A DNA stretch of 63,992 bases, filler included, from Dirinaria sp. TL-2023a (taxonomy: Eukaryota), in the NCBI GenBank assembly GCA_051941275.1. It is 3 parts of 3 records of this genome, joined end to end, with 100 filler letters (N's around TTAATTAATTAA, not from the genome) between each part and the next. Parts side by side here need not be neighbours in the genome. Positions count along the whole stretch, not along the records: positions 1 to 21,320 come from JAVEBF010000261.1; 2 more parts are not named here. The stretch is one strand, 5' to 3'. A model generated the notes under the pieces. That model was given only the letters and a program-made list of their open reading frames with translations. It had not been told where the DNA came from and searched no databases. Made by a program: the position numbers and the translations under genes. Shown piece after piece: positions 1,054 to 17,976 of this stretch; position 1 is the first letter of the stretch, and the number at the start of each line of letters is the position of its first letter.

Positions 1054-2123
1054 TCAATAGCGATCATCATCGTACTCACGGCGCTCGTAACGGCCTTCGT
1101 CGTAAGCGTTGTCGATGTCTTGGGGGATGTCCTCGACTTCTTGCACCTATCGATTGCGAGTATAAGCCACCTGATCATCTCTAAGGGAATATAGGTCAAG
1201 GGAGATGAGCTTACCTTTTCGCCAGTCCAGCGTGCAGCGTCATCAGGAAAGTCTTCGACTTCTTGGACCTGAAGCAGAATCCATTTAGCTTTCCAACCCA
1301 GTAGAACAAGGGATCTTGAAAAGGATTAAGCGTACCTTTCGGCCAGTCCATCGAGCAGCATCGTCGACCAGGCTATCATCCTGGTAATCGTCACGGCGGT
1401 AGTCGTCACGGACAACGGTCTCCTGATCATAGCGATCACTACGTCCATAGTTGTCTTCGTTGACGTACGTATTCTCGACGATGGTCTCGTCACCACGGCC
1501 TCCACCGTATCCACCACCATAGCGGTCGTCCTCGTTGACGTAGGTGTTGTTTTCGATGATCGTCTCGCTGGGTCGTCCACCGCCGTATCCGTACTCTTCA
1601 CGACGTTCACCCCCTTCGAAATCATCTTTCCACTTCTCCTCGTCACGCTTCCAGTGCTCTTCTATAATGGCAAGAATGGTCAGAGATTGCTCGCATCCCT
1701 AGAATCCGCTTGCTCTAGCAACACATGACACGTACCAACTTTGTCGCCCTCATGCATGAGGACCGCGCCCGCAAGCAATCCTCCAGCCGCACCAGCAGCT
1801 CCATATGCCATGTTGTGGTTCTTAGGAGCTGGAGCCTGGGCTTGCTGATAGCTGCCCCGAGACTGATCATAGCCGCCGGGTCCATATCCCGATGGAGGAG
1901 CACCTGGGCGATTCCAAGTCCGCTCGCCAGTGTGCGTGTTCACGTAGAACCATCGGTTATCGGGGGCATCCCATTCTGCGACCCATCCTGGTGGGAGGCC
2001 GTAATTAGGGTCTTGAGAGCTTTGAGGTTGCTGCTGTTGGGGAGGGTAGCCTTGACCCTGTTGACCCTGGCCAGACTGGCCATGGTGGAGATAGTTCTGA
2101 GCGGCTTTCTCGATGAAATCCAT
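1054..2123 (-). CDS. WW-domain protein with Gln/Gly/Tyr-rich and acidic repeat regions (4 exons)
   Basis: WW motif LPPGWVAEWDAPDNRWFYVNTHTGERTWNRP. Exons 2123-1736, 1661-1336, 1268-1215 and 1146-1054 join in frame through GT..AG introns. C-terminal repeats DDAARWTG[RE]KVQEVED. Confidence 0.9.
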
Positions 2124-3638: not shown

Positions 3639-4464
3639 TCAAGATGCCGAACACTCTGGGTTGTAAGTAGCTCCCGGATGAGCGTTCAGATACTCCTGGG
3701 CAGCACATCCGCAAATGGTAGTGCAATCGGCAGCGGTAACGCAGATCTGGGGACAGACGACCGTTCGCGGAGGGTGGTGCGTCTTCTCATAATCTTCCGC
3801 CGCGCATCCGCATACCGTGTCGCCGTCATCGGTGACGATGCAGAATTGAGGGCATACTTTTCTCTTCGTGTTGTGGGTCTTTTCGTAATCAAACGCTGCG
3901 CATCCGCAGAGGAATTGGCCGTCCTCGGTCTCGATACAGTACTGAGGACAGCGTTTTCCCAGTTCCCGACGCTGAACGGGAGCGTCGATTGCGCAGCCGC
4001 AGACTTTGCCACCTGAGTTGGGGCCTTTGATACAGATGTCGCACGAAGGCTTCACTGCTCTTTCTTTCAGTGGACTGCAGACATCAGCATCGGCGCAGGC
4101 TGGCCAGTCGCAGGTATTTTCGTTGCAGGCGGGGCCATGGCCACATTGCATTCCCTCTGGGCAAGGCCATTGGCGCTTTTGGTAGATATCTTGACAAACA
4201 TCGGCATCGACGCAACCTGGGAGATCGCATGTCTCGGCGGTACAGACCGGGCCAGGTCCGCAGTGGAGACCTTCAGGACAGCCGAGTTGGCGCTCTTGTA
4301 GGTCCGAGGCTGACTGTGAAGGGGACGCAAGGGCACCTGCCAAATTCACGATCAGTTAGCCGAAACGTCCAGGAGATTAGGCTGGAGCAGGATTGGAGAG
4401 ATACGGGGAAATTACCGAATGCAGCAGAGAGCACAAGAGCCCAGGAAGTGTAAGTGAAAAGCAT
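3639..4464 (-). CDS. Secreted cysteine-rich repeat polyprotein, 248 aa, 30 Cys, with Kex2-type sites (KEP-like precursor)
   Basis: Exon 1 (4464-4416, MLFTYTSWALVLSAAF signal) splices through a 79-nt GTAATT..CTAAC..CAG intron (4415-4337) into exon 2 (4336-3639). Six Cys modules are separated by ER/KR/RR/PR. Confidence 0.88.
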
Positions 4465-6486
4465 TGTGGGTTATGATCACCGCTATATGAGTCGTAGATC
4501 TAGGAAGCAACGAGTGATATGATGAGCGAATGTGAATCTTTGTAGTGATAGTATATACCATCTTCACAGTGACGAGAGACCTTTCTCTTATACATCCTAT
4601 CCTCCACTTCGCTGGTAAATATCGTTAGATTGCTTTTCAGCTCCGTCCAACGTTGTAGACTCTAGATATCTTGGCAGCCTGCTGCAACCTTGACCCACAA
4701 TGTGGATACAGAACGACGGGAATGTACCTCAAGGCATGACATGGAACGGACCAATAAATTCAGAGACAAAGACAACCTCGGCAGAAAAACGTGGTAATAA
4801 AAATTTACGAGAAGTTCACTCAGCCTCGCTTGACTACGCTTACGCTGACTCCCGTGCATCGTTACACCCATCTGACTGTTTTCTGACTTTATAGGCTTAA
4901 GCGGCTGGAGAGCACCTCACTTCATCACATGAGCTCCGCATACGGTGTCAGCTGAGTCATCTGTTGCCTAAAGAAAATAAATCGACTGACAGCGTATCCT
5001 CGGACTTACCTAAATTGTCACCAATCGCAGATGGAAAGCCCTAGAACTCGCTGGTTGCCTGATTCCTCGATGGCATAGGGTTTCCCCAAGACTCACAGAT
5101 AAGGTGCTTTATACTTCAAAGAGCAAGATCTCGTGCGACGGTCCCTGAGTTATATCGCGAGATCTTACACAACATCCTCATATAAGTTGCTTTAGCAGTA
5201 CAACCATCTCTTGATTGTCGTGCGATTCTGCGATTTAAGCATATTGTTGACCAGATATAGAGAGTTATGCTGAACGATGGTCATGTTCCGATGAGCTAGT
5301 ATATGCTTGAGCCACACGTGACGACCTCGACTCGTCAGACTGATGAATCGAAGCGCAAGTCAGCCGTATTCCCACTTGGCGCCACTCTCATTAAAATGGC
5401 AACTGGATCGGAATAAGGTACTAGATATAGAGGTGTTGGTGGTTAAATATCCCCATGCGAGGCTTGGCTTAAGGCTGACATTGTTCATGCGCTGATTCAT
5501 GAAGGACGGACCTGCCAAGCTACGTTCGGATATAACAATATTGAAGACTGAACTTCTGTCATCATGATGCAGTGCAGGTATATTCATTTCACAGACGAAT
5601 CAACGAGTTCAATGATGTCGCATTTATCTTCAAAAGATTCGACATTCAAAACCCGTTCTCGAATGTGGATGAGAATGCGATTCTTGAGAAAGAGAGAAAG
5701 AAATTACGAGTTTCGATCGTGACTTGCGATGATACTCGATCATCTCGAATACACGAGGATCGCAGAGGGAAAGCGTTCTCGCAAGCAGTGATGTTTTTCG
5801 TTAAAAGATTCGCGCGTGTTCTGCCTTGAGAAATGTCTCTTGGCTTTTGAACAGTACAGTACAGCGACTTACTGTATCCATGTGCGAAACGCCTTTATTT
5901 TATGACTTTGGACGATACTTGGGAATCGAATTCAATCTATGAGCAGAATCCAGATCACATACAGGCGTCTGATGCTTGTGTCAGACAGCAAATATCTTGC
6001 ACATTGCACCACAAGAGGACTCCTCTCTTGGTGAATGATTATTGCTGTATTTGTTGATTTTTTTTGTCCGACAGCTTGTCTAGTCGATTTCCATACTGGC
6101 AAGCATCATTGAAAAAATCCACGAAAATAAATGGAAGAAGTTCATACTACGAGGATAAATCAAATCTTAACACAACAAATGAGTACACGCAGCAAATATT
6201 CCAGCTTCCCCAAACCGGGTCGATTTTCAAAACATATTGAGAAACTCGCACGCGCTCCGCTCTATACCAAAGACGCAGCCAGGCGTACGATCAGAAGCCG
6301 ACGTCATCAAATCCCGGAGAAATCCTCATGACTGACAGTGTCCAGCCATATACGGCACGGTCATACCATCCGAGCAAGTGCAATCGTGAACCGTGCACTT
6401 CGGGTGTGGGCCATCCGTGCACTCGTGCCTATCAAGCGTGCGTCAGCCACTTCAAACCAAACATTCATCGACGAAACAGTACTTAC

Positions 6487-7122
6487 TCAGGATTGCAATG
6501 TCTCGTTTGGTGGAGATGCGTTATCGGGGGGATCGGCGCACAACTGAAAGGAACTCTTGCCTGGGAGATGTTTCATGATGCCGCAGAAGTTGGCCGTGTT
6601 GTGGTCGACGTATTGCAGCACCACGCGGTCGTTGCCCGGTTCACTCTGCCCCTGCCATATGCCGTTGGCGATGATGGGGTATTCGATGAAATTGGTCTTG
6701 GTGATTTCCGGGTCATTGTCCTGAGCGCAGCCTGGAAGCGCGAAATGGCCGAAGCTTAGCAGGTGCTTCGGCGTGTTGCGGTGCGGGTAGCCTCTACCGC
6801 TCTTTGGATGAGCTGGTGGAAAGTTCTCAGCAGATTGAACTTGCAATAAGGGATATATTTGAAGAGGGTACGATGGATTTTGTCCATGTTCCCTGGTGTC
6901 GTGGCTCTGAAGACACGTACGCTTCAGTGTGCATGTCCTCCATGCCTTGTGCGCGAAGGAAATGGCTGCTTTGATGGAGTCTTGGTTGTACGTGCCATCA
7001 GCGCAGACTTTATCATTACCTGGCAGGTTATTGATAACGCCTGGGTTGCGCGCTGCAAGAACTCTTGTCGGCGTGACAGTCACCGTGCCCAGGAGGAGGA
7101 TGATAGCTGAAGCGATGTGCAT
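6487..7122 (-). CDS. Secreted RNase T1/N1/U2-family ribonuclease
   Basis: Signal peptide. Motifs GYPH, IEYPI, PGNDRVV and GIMKH match the His/Glu/Arg/His catalytic set of RNase T1. Likely in-frame 108-nt intron at 6920-6813 (GTACGT..GCTGAG..CAG). The gene may extend to 6326 (see findings). Confidence 0.82.
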   Translation of the reverse strand: MHIASAIILLLGTVTVTPTRVLAARNPGVINNLPGNDKVCADGTYNQDSIKAAISFAHKAWRTCTLKRTCLQSHDTREHGQNPSYPLQIYPLLQVQSAENFPPAHPKSGRGYPHRNTPKHLLSFGHFALPGCAQDNDPEITKTNFIEYPIIANGIWQGQSEPGNDRVVLQYVDHNTANFCGIMKHLPGKSSFQLCADPPDNASPPNETLQS

Positions 7123-9281: not shown

Positions 9282-9608
9282 ATGTCTATCAATCGCCGGA
9301 TCGTCTCTTCATTCCCCATCCCGGAGCTTCCGGGCTACGAGCTTCGCTCCGTCCTCCTCTCCTACCCCCCAGGGTGCCGTGCCCCTGTTCATGATCACCC
9401 AACCGCGGCAACGGGTTTCGTTGTCTCCGGAAGATGCATCTCGCAGTGGGAAGGTGGAGAGGTTGAGGAGTATAGTGAAGGGGAAGGGTTTCTCGATCAT
9501 GGGAGTAGAAGGCATTTGAGGTCGGAGAACGCGAGTGCGACGGCGTCGCTGGAAATGTTGGTGTCTTATGTAATCAAGATCGGAGAGCCGAATGTGAGGA
9601 TGCTCTGA
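9282..9608 (+). CDS. Small RmlC-like cupin domain protein
   Basis: YPPGCRAPVHDHP...GFVVSG and YSEGEGFLD....H correspond to cupin motifs 1 and 2. TATAAA lies upstream at ~9212. Confidence 0.85.
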   Translation: MSINRRIVSSFPIPELPGYELRSVLLSYPPGCRAPVHDHPTAATGFVVSGRCISQWEGGEVEEYSEGEGFLDHGSRRHLRSENASATASLEMLVSYVIKIGEPNVRML

Positions 9609-13172: not shown

Positions 13173-15827
13173 TTAGTGGAGTACTGGCTGGTACTTGACC
13201 TCTTCGTCATACCCGTGCCCCTGTATCTGAAACCTCGTCTTGGCTTTGATACCATCGTCCCCTGCCGCGTGGTCCAGCTCTCCCGTATACCGGTGCTCAA
13301 TGGCTGCCAGAAGCAGCTCCGTCAAGCTCCTCTCCCGTCGCCGCAAAACGAGTCCCAGCACTGTCGAAACCAGCACGCACACTCCACCTACCACCGTGAC
13401 CGTGATACCCATCTTCGATGTTCGGCTGTCGGTCCCGTACGCCCACACGTGCACCTGCGCGTAAAACCACAGGGTAGGGTGCTTCGGGTCTTTGGTGTCG
13501 GTGTTGTTCTGCGTCAGGTTCGCCTTGGTGAACGTGACCATACTCAGCGCTTGCAGATGGGAGTAGTAAACGAACAATGCCAAGTCATCGAACCGTTTGG
13601 TGTTATCGTTTTCGGAATTCACGAGGTAGAATTCATCGAGATCCGGGCTGCTCTCGTCCGACTCCGGCCTGAGCCCGGTAGTTGTGGCTGTTGGTGCTGA
13701 GCTTGTTGAAACAGTGCCGATGAGTAGGCTAGTGTAGGCCGACGTCGCGGCGCTGAATTCGTAGAGGTCACTGGAGCTTGCCGCACTGGGGGCGGCATCG
13801 GTCGTGGAGGCTTCCTGACGCTTGATGCGCAGCGACTGGGCACCATAACCAGGCCCGGTTTGACTAGTGACCGTCGGCGTGGGCGATGCCGCCGCGTAAG
13901 AGGGCGGTAGTGTGTTGTTCGAAGTATCAGGGAAAAGCGAAGTGGTATTGGACAAGGTTGTGGAATTGAAGTTCTCGTAGTTCCCATTGTCTTCCCGCGT
14001 AACGTTCGCAAATGTCTCGTTGCGAAAAGTGGCCTTGAAGCCTCGAATTAGCGAAGTAGCCGCAGACCTATTAACGATAAGGCCGTTTTGGTTAACTGAC
14101 CAGGCTGCCAGAAACCAGTCCGGATCTACAGGCACAAATGGTAACTTTTCCTTTTGAAAATCAGGCAAATCATCCACTTGAACAAGATATAGGGGATTGG
14201 TTTGTGGTGATGTATCGAGTGTGTAGGTAGAGAAATCCGCGAAGGTGAAGAATTCGAAGACGACTGTGTGACCAGGAAATTCTCGCGGCATGCTTATTTC
14301 GACACTCAGGATGTTGAAAGACACAATCGACGCATTGTCGGGTTTGTTTGAGGAAAAAAAATTGGTCCAGTCGCAATCGTGCTGAGAATTGACGGTACCG
14401 TTAATCAGACACGAAGGGGGTATCAGGCCGTGGTTTAGAGCTTCGTTGGAATAAGCAGATGTGTCAGAGAAAAATACATTCACTGTGGCGCGCTCAGACA
14501 AGCTTTCCGGCGATGTTAGGACTTCAAAATTCGCCTTCTTGTTAAGAGGATTCCAGCCCGTTCCTATGCGAAGACACTTGGTGTAGTTGCCGTTTCCCCA
14601 TTTATAGCCGCCGTAGCAGCGAACTTCCCGTCCATTGCCAACAGTTGTGTTCGTAATATTTGTGGGATGAAATACGTTTTCAAGTGCACCGAAGATAGGA
14701 CCTTTGCGCTTGAGGATGGTGTTCAAAGAACTATTGTAGTCACGGTAGGCAGTATTGTGATTCAGATTTTGGCTGGCGGTCTCAAAGTTGTCAAGGTCCA
14801 ACGATATCTCGCGCAGTGTTTGTCGGTTGGGAGCCCAGGAAGCGTCGTAGAAATTGTTGGTAGTGTTAAAGGTAAAGAAAACGTCACCTTCGGGAGAGAT
14901 GCCGGCAGATTGGGCACTACTGTAGGATGCGATCGGGTTGCTATCAGATGCTACCACAGCGTCATCCCACGAGTCCAAGCTCGCAGCATAGGGTATCGTA
15001 GTGCATGAGTAAAGGCGTTCGGCAAGCTCTAATGTGCTGCAATTTGGGAAAACATCTTGGTCCTGGCCACCAGGAAATGTTCCATTAGGGAATGCTCCTA
15101 TGCCTGAGGTAGTGAAACTGTGCTGTGCTTGCTTGGGAAGATCAATCCACTGCAGAGTCGGTAGCACCAACACGGCGACAGCAGGACCCATCAGATTCAC
15201 CAATATGCACATGAAGGCCAAGAATATGACAAAGAGGTACAGAGCCAGTCTCAGCAGAGCCCGCTCCTTGATTTTCGATTGGGCCGGACTGCGCGACGCT
15301 GCACGGAAGACTTCCAAGAGAGAGCGAGGATCAGCGAACTCAACCGGGCTCGTCAAGAGCCCGATCGGAAGCCCGCCATGCCGTGATGCTAGTATCATGG
15401 CGATGCTGTATACCAGACTGATGGCGACGAAGAGGAACCAGATCTCCAAGGCCTTGGCGACCAGCTGCAAGCCCCCGAGAGTGTTGTGATCATTGCGGTC
15501 GAGTTTATGTGCCCAATTCGAGCCGCCTGAGCCTAGAGGGTCCGCTTTGCATCCTCCGAGACGGCAAGAAGCGCTGGGACCAATCCTGAAGCCGGATAAA
15601 TTCAAGTACAGCAGCACGACAATCGGAGCGAGCCACAGAAATCCCAGTAACAGATGCACCGACGCCCATAATCGAGATCGAGAGGATCGTGGGGTTATTA
15701 TTATTGACTCCTCGGTCTCACGGATCTCTGTGAAAGCCGCTTTCTGCTCGTCCAGTCTCGGTATCGTTTCATACTGGGAGTTCATCGTGACAGGTTTCGC
15801 GAACGGGCGCGTGAATCGGATGGGCAT
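13173..15827 (-). CDS. 884-aa membrane glycoprotein of unknown function
   Basis: Long intronless ORF with about 3 N-terminal hydrophobic helices, a large lumenal region rich in N-x-S/T sequons, a Ser/Thr-rich insert and one C-terminal TM helix. Confidence 0.88.
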   Translation of the reverse strand: MPIRFTRPFAKPVTMNSQYETIPRLDEQKAAFTEIRETEESIIITPRSSRSRLWASVHLLLGFLWLAPIVVLLYLNLSGFRIGPSASCRLGGCKADPLGSGGSNWAHKLDRNDHNTLGGLQLVAKALEIWFLFVAISLVYSIAMILASRHGGLPIGLLTSPVEFADPRSLLEVFRAASRSPAQSKIKERALLRLALYLFVIFLAFMCILVNLMGPAVAVLVLPTLQWIDLPKQAQHSFTTSGIGAFPNGTFPGGQDQDVFPNCSTLELAERLYSCTTIPYAASLDSWDDAVVASDSNPIASYSSAQSAGISPEGDVFFTFNTTNNFYDASWAPNRQTLREISLDLDNFETASQNLNHNTAYRDYNSSLNTILKRKGPIFGALENVFHPTNITNTTVGNGREVRCYGGYKWGNGNYTKCLRIGTGWNPLNKKANFEVLTSPESLSERATVNVFFSDTSAYSNEALNHGLIPPSCLINGTVNSQHDCDWTNFFSSNKPDNASIVSFNILSVEISMPREFPGHTVVFEFFTFADFSTYTLDTSPQTNPLYLVQVDDLPDFQKEKLPFVPVDPDWFLAAWSVNQNGLIVNRSAATSLIRGFKATFRNETFANVTREDNGNYENFNSTTLSNTTSLFPDTSNNTLPPSYAAASPTPTVTSQTGPGYGAQSLRIKRQEASTTDAAPSAASSSDLYEFSAATSAYTSLLIGTVSTSSAPTATTTGLRPESDESSPDLDEFYLVNSENDNTKRFDDLALFVYYSHLQALSMVTFTKANLTQNNTDTKDPKHPTLWFYAQVHVWAYGTDSRTSKMGITVTVVGGVCVLVSTVLGLVLRRRERSLTELLLAAIEHRYTGELDHAAGDDGIKAKTRFQIQGHGYDEEVKYQPVLH

Positions 15828-16953
15828 GCTTTAGGGTTGCTGGTATCAAACCAAGAGCAGGCTCAACGGCAGGATCTCTTCTCCTGGGAGGAGAAAGGCT
15901 CAGGCAAAGTGATACAAGGCGGAAGTAGAGAGTTCCAGAGGCGACAACACGGCGAAACATGGTCTCAGGACATGTGCAGCTTTATCTGCCCCAGGGAGCA
16001 GAGCCGCAGCCATCGGGGAACAGGGGGAGATGGGCGAGATTCGTCTGAGGAATCTCGGCTGAGGATTCAGCATGCTCGGCATGCAGCTTTGAAACCCGGA
16101 TATGCGTCTGCGCCGCAGCCTGGTTGCCTTGTTCAGAAGGTGGAAGAGCAGTGTGATTCAGCACGGCCTCAGTAGAATTGTCTTGAGTGATCTGGAATCC
16201 AAAGCAAGATGCTGCAGAAGAACACAGCTGATCTAATTTTGACCATTCATACTGATCGGGACGAATCGAACGGAATCCTGTGCTACCCATACTCATGCAG
16301 GGGCGCGAGGGGCGGTGATTCGGTTTGCAGGAGTCGGGCGCAGTCGTGTGGTAGTAGTGTGGTCAGGTAGATAACGATAATAATATTCCTTGGGTGGGTG
16401 GGCACATGGCAGGAAGGTGAGGAGGGTAAGATTCCAGTGCTCTACCTCATTGGAGGAAAGGTGCTGGCTGCGGAGCCCAGCGATCGACAGAGCTGAGGAA
16501 TCTCGAAGGTCGATCAGTCATACTGGGTTTCAATAGGAGGAAGAGGAAGACGAGCTGAAACCAAAGTTGCAGTTGCATGCAAGTAAGAGCTTGGCGGAAA
16601 AACCCTTCGGCCGAGAAGGGCCCGATCGGATCCAAGGATTATTAATAATCCGGGAAGTCTGGGCAACAACGGTTTACTACTACTGTAGTCTCGGCCCGCC
16701 ATTTGACCCGTGGTTCTGTTCCAAGCTCAGCCAAGCTCGCCAAGGTATCAAAAGCAAAAGAACCAGGAAAGGTGGACACTACTACCTACAGTAGTAAGGT
16801 AGATGGCGTCCGATCAGCTAGTAGAGACTAGAGGTAGTAGAGCACCTACGGTTCATGCTTCATTACTATTATGTACATGTACTGTACAGTACCATATTAC
16901 TATTATCGTCTGATCACATGTAGGTACCTTGGGAAAGGTACTTAACTTCAGTG

Positions 16954-17976
16954 ATGCCATCATCCAAATCCATTGGTCGACTCCGGTTCCTCTCGAAGGT
17001 GTTCGGCGCAGCCTTGGCGCTTTGCCTTGGATTACGTCAATTCAGCGTATTCTTCCTCCATAAGAATAATAATAATAATAATCCGTCGTCTATCCCTCAA
17101 CTACGTGAAGCACAGACCGCGATTCCTGCCAAGATCTGGCAAACATGGTATACGTCGGCGGTTGGGTTAGGAGAGCAAGAGAAGCACCGGACCCTGAGCT
17201 GGCTGGACAAGAACCCACGGTACCAGTATGAACTCGTCACCGACCAGGCAGCCGAAAGCTTGGTAGAGCGGCATTATTTCCACGGCAATGACTTGCTGCT
17301 GGCGGAGACTTTCTTGGCACTGAACGATACTATCCTGAAAGCCGACTTCCTTCGTTATCTGATTATTTTGGCCGAAGGTGGGCTCTACACCGACATCGAC
17401 GTGGAATGCTATCAGCCAATAGATGAGTGGCTTCCGCTTGATCTCAGAGAGAAAGCCGCCGTCATCGTCGGCATCGAAGCTGATCGACAACCGGTCGAAA
17501 AGGATCTCACCCTATACTATGACCGTCGAAAACACATCTGGGGCATCAACAACTGGACCTTCATGGCCAAACGCGGGCACCCGTTCCTGCGGCGCGTAGC
17601 AGAAACTGTGGCCCGGAACCTCCGAGCTCTCGCTGAACAACAGGGTACTAGTCTGGCAGCAATCGATGTTTCATACAAACAAGTCATTGACACTACTGGG
17701 CCTCGAGCTTTCACAGCTGCCTTTTTGCAACATGCCTCCCAAGCTACGGGCAAAAAGTTTACATCCGCCGATGCCACCATGTTGGATAGACCTATGGTCG
17801 TCGGCGATATCGTCATCCTGCCCATCCGAGCAATGAGCACGGCAGAGGCGGATCGAGCAGATGGCGACGGCGCTCGATCGAACTCCTGGCCTGCTGTCCT
17901 GTTCCATCACTCGGTGGGCTCCTGGAAGAAGACTCATTTCGCCAAACCAGATCCAACTTCAGACAGCCCAGGATAA
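16954..17976 (+). CDS. Glycosyltransferase family 32 (Och1-like alpha-1,6-mannosyltransferase)
   Basis: IPAKIWQTW, KADFLRYLIILAEGGLYTDIDVEC (DXD), VIVGIEAD, NWTFMAKRGHP, TTGP and HHSVGSWK, plus an N-terminal anchor. An (AAT)n repeat encodes poly-Asn. Confidence 0.93.
   Translation: MPSSKSIGRLRFLSKVFGAALALCLGLRQFSVFFLHKNNNNNNPSSIPQLREAQTAIPAKIWQTWYTSAVGLGEQEKHRTLSWLDKNPRYQYELVTDQAAESLVERHYFHGNDLLLAETFLALNDTILKADFLRYLIILAEGGLYTDIDVECYQPIDEWLPLDLREKAAVIVGIEADRQPVEKDLTLYYDRRKHIWGINNWTFMAKRGHPFLRRVAETVARNLRALAEQQGTSLAAIDVSYKQVIDTTGPRAFTAAFLQHASQATGKKFTSADATMLDRPMVVGDIVILPIRAMSTAEADRADGDGARSNSWPAVLFHHSVGSWKKTHFAKPDPTSDSPG

Follow-up and report, generated by a model that had tools for sequence, protein, structure and literature searches.

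We have identified a gene in Dirinaria sp. TL-2023a, a lichen-forming Lecanoromycete (ascomycete), which encodes a putative Kex2-type precursor that is annotated only as a hypothetical protein. The gene occupies positions 3639 to 4464 on the minus strand of the window, the 63,992-nt stretch of DNA analyzed here, in which it is present as a single copy. Its product consists of six Cys modules of two types, A and B. Judged from the sequence, the precursor is probably cleaved and disulfide-bonded, and we lean towards a reading in which it releases separate disulfide mini-proteins that bind targets outside the cell. It belongs to a conserved and apparently undescribed family, through which the KEP concept, so far one of short peptides that are linear or cyclised, comes to include modules predicted to fold around several disulfides.

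Polyketide chemistry is what lichen fungi are best known for, and it is unclear what their small secreted proteins do (PMC9232553, in part). The family offers defined peptides of 3-4 kDa, amenable to synthesis or expression, through which a part played by peptides in lichen defence or symbiosis can be put to a direct test. Its two small, acidic disulfide frameworks, which tolerate variation in loops and copy number, could also serve as scaffolds.

Gene structure and encoded product

Exon 1 (4416..4464, minus strand; 49 nt) begins with the ATG at 4464 and carries the start codon and most of the signal peptide. It is separated by a predicted 79-nt, phase-1 GT-AG intron (4337..4415, minus strand) from exon 2 (3639..4336, minus strand; 698 nt), which has its stop codon at 3639. 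The intron reads GT...CAG from 4415 to 4337 and contains branch-point-like CTAAC/CTGAT. Translation of the spliced minus strand gives 248 residues with 30 Cys, and this product matches NCBI KAL8828455.1, an equally long hypothetical protein from Dirinaria sp., at 100% identity. The splice is that of the NCBI model, and relatives have a 77-nt phase-1 intron in the same place; the intron and the 248-residue protein of the original prediction are thereby borne out. Three alternative introns also keep the frame open but shorten the signal peptide or pro-region, and were set aside in favor of 4415-4337 on the strength of the NCBI model and the relatives.

The exon-2 frame holds 30 Cys in 238 codons, while the runner-up among 124 window frames is 8.7% Cys and no frame reached more than 16 Cys in any of 30 shuffles, so the Cys richness is far beyond chance. 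A hydrophobic stretch at about residues 6-20 constitutes the predicted signal peptide, with cleavage inferred at about residue 20. The signal peptide claimed earlier is thus upheld by hydropathy judgement and by the retention of its own exon at four related loci (L001-L004).

The first part of exon 2 encodes the last residues of the signal peptide and then a short, Ser-rich pro-region (4290..4336; this and all following features lie on the minus strand), which terminates in LQER, an LxxR-type site. Module A1 (4173..4289, residues 33-71) has six Cys, a Gln start, a KR end and a net charge of about -6. Module A2 (4059..4172, residues 72-109) also has six Cys and a Gln start, ends in LKER and is 53% identical to A1. 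Module B1 (3966..4058, residues 110-140) has four Cys in a CxxC-hairpin-CGC arrangement and an RR end, and is followed by a five-residue spacer (3951..3965) ending in LGKR. Modules B2 (3861..3950, residues 146-175) and B3 (3765..3860, residues 176-207) each have four Cys and a predicted hairpin and helix, and share 72% DNA identity over 89 nt; B2 ends in KR and B3 in a weak single-Arg HPPR. Module B4 (3639..3764, residues 208-248 plus the stop codon) carries an extra Cys pair, placed in the hairpin loop and at the C-terminus.

On re-count, all of the Cys spacings given in the original prediction were as it had them: 5-5-4-4-5 in both A1 and A2, 2-10-1 in B1 and 3-9-1 in B2 and B3. The Gln starts of both A copies and the two Cys gained by B4 (spacing 3-5-3-1-17) were likewise recovered. 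The extra pair of B4 recurs in one repeat of the homologue P0040, which sits on a long branch that makes the independence of the two occurrences uncertain. The description of the modules as separated by basic sites held for A2, B2 and B3, the only three of the six that are preceded by dibasic KR; A1 and B1 instead follow single-Arg LxxR sites (LQER and LKER), and B4 follows the weak HPPR, which lacks an aliphatic P4.

The protein family

Three successive searches yielded 25, then a further 22, then a further 16 proteins, giving a family of 63 non-redundant members; members of 90% clusters and the exon-2 translation were excluded from all family counts, and two of the 63 proteins yielded no module by the patterns used. 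The usual plan is a signal peptide followed by A modules, from one to four in number, a single B1 and at least one B2. Profiles of A and B do not score one another, which agrees with the earlier claim of two unrelated Cys frameworks, and those of B1 and B2 cross-score at about 20 bits. The N-termini of many homologues look mis-called, since the signal exon is separate. Source names accompany three of the 63 proteins, namely the query and two B-only Auriculariales proteins; all are named "hypothetical", which shows why such genes get overlooked.

The two Auriculariales proteins, P0058 and P0077 (Auricularia subglabra and Exidia glandulosa), are 83-85 residues long and secreted-looking, with two B-like modules and no A. 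They match at E 1e-7 and 3e-5. The B module may be older than the lichen fungi, or convergent. In P0018 and P0043 an A-type four-Cys core lies within or directly after a B-type unit, an arrangement that suggests module shuffling. No fused forms were found among proteins of 579-2000 residues, which is weak evidence.

Probable cleavage of the precursor

KR or RR occurs in 156 of 198 inter-module linkers, compared with a mean of 43.8 and a maximum of 62 in 1000 shuffles, although these counts come from related sequences and their independence is overstated. Within the modules themselves, KR or RR was found in 0 of 259. The A modules have a further signature, with Arg just upstream of 85 of 93 six-Cys copies. 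Leu occupies P4 in 63 of these 85, while 60 have Gln and 16 have Gly at P1', so that the Gln start noted in the Dirinaria gene extends to most A modules of the family. The extended Kex2 motif of PMC8528282 (in part) consists of P1 Arg and an aliphatic P4, with a P2 tolerant of Glu and Pro; the P4 Leu and P1 Arg before A modules fit this motif. On this refined reading, A modules would usually be released at LxxR rather than at KR. Between a KR/RR site and the Arg that precedes an A module, 49 short, Cys-free spacers were found, and KR is followed by X-Ala or X-Pro in 55 of 102 cases. Pyroglutamate has been detected on other fungal KEP peptides (PMC9769878, in part).

The remaining 42 of 198 linkers are without KR/RR, and 28 of these belong to one subclade of six proteins, many of whose linkers are devoid of Arg, so modules there can persist as tandems. 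The expectation that homologues would conserve the KR/RR linkers held across most of the family and failed in this subclade, where many sites were lost. It could be argued from such linkers that secretion leaves the protein mostly intact, with one or two cuts at most, and that it serves as a multivalent, beads-on-a-string surface or matrix protein. Many of the 28 linkers lack basic residues; strict dibasic cutting in silico leaves A2 and B1 of the Dirinaria precursor joined, its B3/B4 site is weak, and crustacean pacifastin precursors show that strings of this type can stay uncut (PMC2689174, in part). We nevertheless regard an uncut protein as quite unlikely, given that 13 of the 14 linkers without KR/RR outside the subclade have a single Arg and that doubly flanked, throw-away spacers and Gln starts make little sense without cutting.

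Predicted disulfide frameworks and folds

Even Cys counts, which the original prediction had remarked on for each module, proved to be a family trait. When 55 main-group proteins were cut in silico and first fragments were dropped, 192 of 196 Cys-bearing fragments had an even number of Cys, namely four in 95 fragments and six in 90 for the most part. Of 98 anchored A cores, 90 keep both Cys1 and Cys2 and eight lack the pair; what looked like the loss of a single Cys in two further cases proved, when inspected, to be a variant of the spacing. Three clades account for the losses in a tree computed from an alignment that the repeats had blurred. As Cys1 and Cys2 are lost only together, we infer that A is a two-disulfide core (Cys3-6) bearing a separately dispensable Cys1-Cys2 loop. 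For B4, a bond from the hairpin loop to the tail is predicted.

AlphaFold2 modeled the whole chain at a mean pLDDT of 70.8 and a pTM of 0.27, with locally confident modules and no overall packing, although the low pTM may equally reflect a shallow alignment. As core blocks, B2-B4 reached pLDDT 84-89 as a hairpin plus helix and A reached 66-81; B3 folded alone had a mean pLDDT of 83.3. The B modules would thus be refined, in these models, to a hairpin with a C-terminal helix. The earlier description of three-disulfide mini-proteins and two-disulfide hairpins stands as to the two frameworks and the hairpin in B, and is modified by the added helix in B and by the core-and-loop reading of A.

Fold searches gave no match at E <= 0.001 or Z >= 2.5, but such small models make poor queries and none of them was of A by itself; these blanks do not show new folds. 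Sequence searches of the PDB gave no match below E 1 (LRP6 at E 1.2-9), no Pfam domain was common to the 40 members examined, an inhibitor family was found in 0 of those 40, and NCBIfam returned nothing meaningful for seven proteins. These results, with the weakness of small-model searches in mind, accord with the statement in the original prediction that neither Cys framework was recognised. The Pfam family DUF4609 (E 0.0045; 17.3 bits against a cut-off of 27) was rejected. The ESM Atlas gave one match of 0.77 to an Ascomycota cluster and none for residues 142-206.

The EGF-like domain is a six-Cys module with C-x3-C-x9-C-x-C at its centre. Module B has the central four Cys only, and FXa_inhibition matched at E 0.0012 in one of 40 members, alongside the LRP6 values given above; an EGF-like assignment was rejected.

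Proposed function

In the proposed mechanism the precursor would enter the ER, where disulfides would form inside each module. Kex2 in the late Golgi would then cut after KR/RR and LxxR, Kex1 would trim basic residues from the C-termini, and pyroglutamate would form from the N-terminal Gln. The expected products are two three-disulfide A peptides of ~3.8 kDa and three or four B peptides of ~2.8-4.3 kDa, as B3 and B4 may remain joined. With its Cys oxidised, A1 should have a mass near 3.80 kDa and A2 one near 3.83 kDa, each ~17 Da less in pyroglutamyl form, compared with ~24 kDa for the uncut protein. Such peptides would be acidic, compact and probably protease-resistant, and would most likely bind proteins of other organisms in or on the thallus. 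None of 42 within-protein A pairs is identical (mean identity 68%), and copies that are never identical within a gene suit a diversified cocktail.

B modules might act as substrate-like protease inhibitors through their C-P-x-x-C segment; enzyme inhibition by B is a tentative proposal to which we would give less than even credence. In 28 short-loop B modules the residue after C-P has an entropy of 2.4 (D, M, Q, L, E, F) amid near-invariant neighbors, and it differs between copies of one precursor. In 46 long-loop B modules its entropy is 1.9, no higher than that of hairpin surface positions (up to 2.7). The C-P-x-x-C segment is likened here to canonical protease inhibitor loops, a resemblance that we assume; a paper search found no literature link between the two. 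Fold searches with a 34-residue model gave no significant match to the Kazal, TIL or potato II families, and follistatin came up only at E 0.3-6.

A broader possibility, which we hold to be doubtful, is that lichen fungi carry expanded, unannotated, venom-gland-like polyproteins. These would be Kex2-released libraries of pyroglutamate-capped disulfide mini-proteins, with two undescribed folds and a variable number of modules, which inhibit enzymes or trigger receptors of the alga, the microbiota or grazers. If true, they would be a fungal counterpart of the multi-domain pacifastin precursors and a source of peptide scaffolds.

Charge bears on two further alternatives. The mean charges of A, B2 and B1 are -3.9, -4.5 and -2.1, respectively, and B1 has CxxC and CGC; modules could therefore be imagined to bind metals in the service of thallus metal handling, either Zn or Cu through CxxC...CxC thiols or Ca through acidic residues. 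GATA zinc fingers and LDL-receptor class A domains were also among the weak Foldseek rows (E 0.45 and higher). Metal binding is improbable in our estimation: the secretory route favors disulfides, Cys are gained and lost pairwise, no acidic position of A is invariant (the two best have Asp in 43 and 62 of 86 modules), and there is no significant fold match.

The same acidity speaks against defensin- or AFP-like, membrane-active antimicrobials or toxins, which small, Cys-rich, secreted peptides might otherwise be, the more so as maturation at LxxR is shared by the AFP and bubble-protein families (PMC13525654, in part). A net positive charge was found in 0 of 86 A, one of 46 B2 and 0 of 32 B1 modules; B1 of the Dirinaria gene, at about +1, is alone in this among the six modules of that gene. 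Three gamma-core patterns were absent from all six Dirinaria modules, whereas the known fungal families described in the same source are basic and have a gamma-core. Near-universal acidity argues against cationic, membrane-lytic peptides, so the cationic form of the toxin option in the original prediction loses ground, and we consider an antimicrobial of this kind very improbable. Membership of AFP, BP or NFAP2 was rejected on the same two features. Extracellular binders are our preferred reading.

Relation to known precursors

The KEP survey of PMC6339444 (in part) set its thresholds at three or more repeats that together account for 15% or more of the protein. In the Dirinaria gene, four related B modules make up more than half of the protein, and A is present twice here and up to four times in relatives. 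A signal peptide is predicted by hydropathy, with its separate exon conserved in L001-L004. As for flanking Kex2 sites, defined as KR, RR or KK, in the Dirinaria gene three of six sites are dibasic, two are LxxR and one is PR, and the family count is the 156 of 198 linkers given above. By its predicted architecture, the gene is a KEP. It shares with KEPs (PMC6339444, PMC7329392 and PMC9769878, each in part) the signal peptide, units between Kex2 sites, X-Ala/X-Pro dipeptides and Gln starts able to form pyroglutamate. The characterised KEP products in those sources are linear, DUF3328-cyclised or two-Cys pheromones, whereas the modules here are predicted to be folded, are 30-41 residues long, with two or three predicted disulfides, and occur as two unrelated designs in fixed order with many LxxR sites. 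DUF3328/UstY was absent from the frames scanned, which were 33 of 102 in the window at 1-20 kb and 18 of 38 in L004, a scan that could miss intron-split genes and in which the window ends 3.6 kb from the gene; on this incomplete frame scan, a dikaritin pathway is not indicated.

The resemblance to pheromone precursors raises the alternative that the released peptides are signals, either pheromone-like or symbiosis ligands for a receptor, with A descended from, or akin to, ascomycete alpha-pheromones. Alpha-pheromone precursors have this same plan and likewise carry X-Ala/X-Pro behind KR (STE13-type dipeptides), and the two-Cys Xylona pheromone motif printed in PMC6339444 (in part) contains CHLPG, a five-residue match to a motif that occurs 15 times in 10 of the 63 proteins; CDLPG occurs 28 times. 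Lichen small secreted proteins are, moreover, induced in early symbiosis (PMC9232553, in part). The alpha-pheromones of PMC6339444 are 9-24 residues long, however, and the units here are three times longer at 30-41 residues, with four to six Cys. The Cys around the common motif are spaced x4 here and x6 in the pheromone as printed, 0 of 63 proteins have a short unit of the two-Cys pheromone type, copies are never identical within a gene, and two unrelated module types share one gene. Membership among alpha-pheromone precursors thus fails on size, Cys number and copy divergence, and we regard a signaling role as unlikely.

Insect pacifastin-related precursors (PMC2689174, in part) are similar in having a signal peptide, small three-disulfide domains, dibasic separators, a variable number of domains and some uncut lineages. 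The six-Cys consensus printed there was found in 0 of 63 proteins, which led us to reject membership; the kingdom and predicted fold also differ and inhibition belongs to pacifastin, so the likeness is an analogy only. K2PP effectors and the AFP/bubble-protein antifungals (PMC8528282 and PMC13525654, each in part) are likewise Cys-rich, secreted fungal proteins matured at LxxR or KR. Each of their genes yields a single mature domain, and the AFP/BP proteins are basic and possess a gamma-core, in contrast to the up to six acidic modules without a gamma-core here.

Topic searches of the literature returned no description of the family, and its motifs and two accessions were absent from a full-text search whose scope leaves out most subscription papers and bioRxiv supplements. 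The available parts of the KEP surveys and of the lichen RiPP survey PMC12048977 report no multi-disulfide cores comparable to these. The supplementary files of PMC7329392 and PMC6339444 gave no match to family motifs, but positive controls failed in them as well, as they are without searchable peptide sequences, and they could list a member unseen; the two Auriculariales accessions are absent from the tables of PMC7329392.

Related loci and neighboring genes

The four loci L001-L004 (at about 5800-7100) have the same gene plan, with a 46-nt signal exon and the 77-nt phase-1 intron. Their pN/pS values of 0.17-0.31, from six non-independent pairs, indicate purifying selection. Two of the four have one added B unit of exactly 30 residues, bounded by KR, and in a B unit of L002 a single Cys is replaced by Ser. 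These loci form a divergent subclade with P0046, P0050, P0066, P0069, P0072 and P0073, in which B is short-looped, many linkers are without Arg, and A cores have four Cys and are preceded by a PGKLP linker. No neighboring genes common to the window and L001-L004 were found.

Around the precursor gene, the window contains a WW-domain protein (1680-2123, minus strand), a cupin (9282-9608, plus strand), a DXD glycosyltransferase (16924-17976, plus strand) and an 885-codon frame (13173-15830, minus strand) that appears to encode hydrophobic segments and matched nothing in Pfam at E <= 0.001. A secreted RNase T1-like gene (6487-7122, minus strand) lies 2 kb upstream of the precursor gene and matches Pfam Ribonuclease at E 3e-4, below the cut-off, and PDB 7w05 at E 0.004. 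Its loop between the YPH and EYP motifs is longer than in the matched structure, and the gene may hold an in-frame intron.
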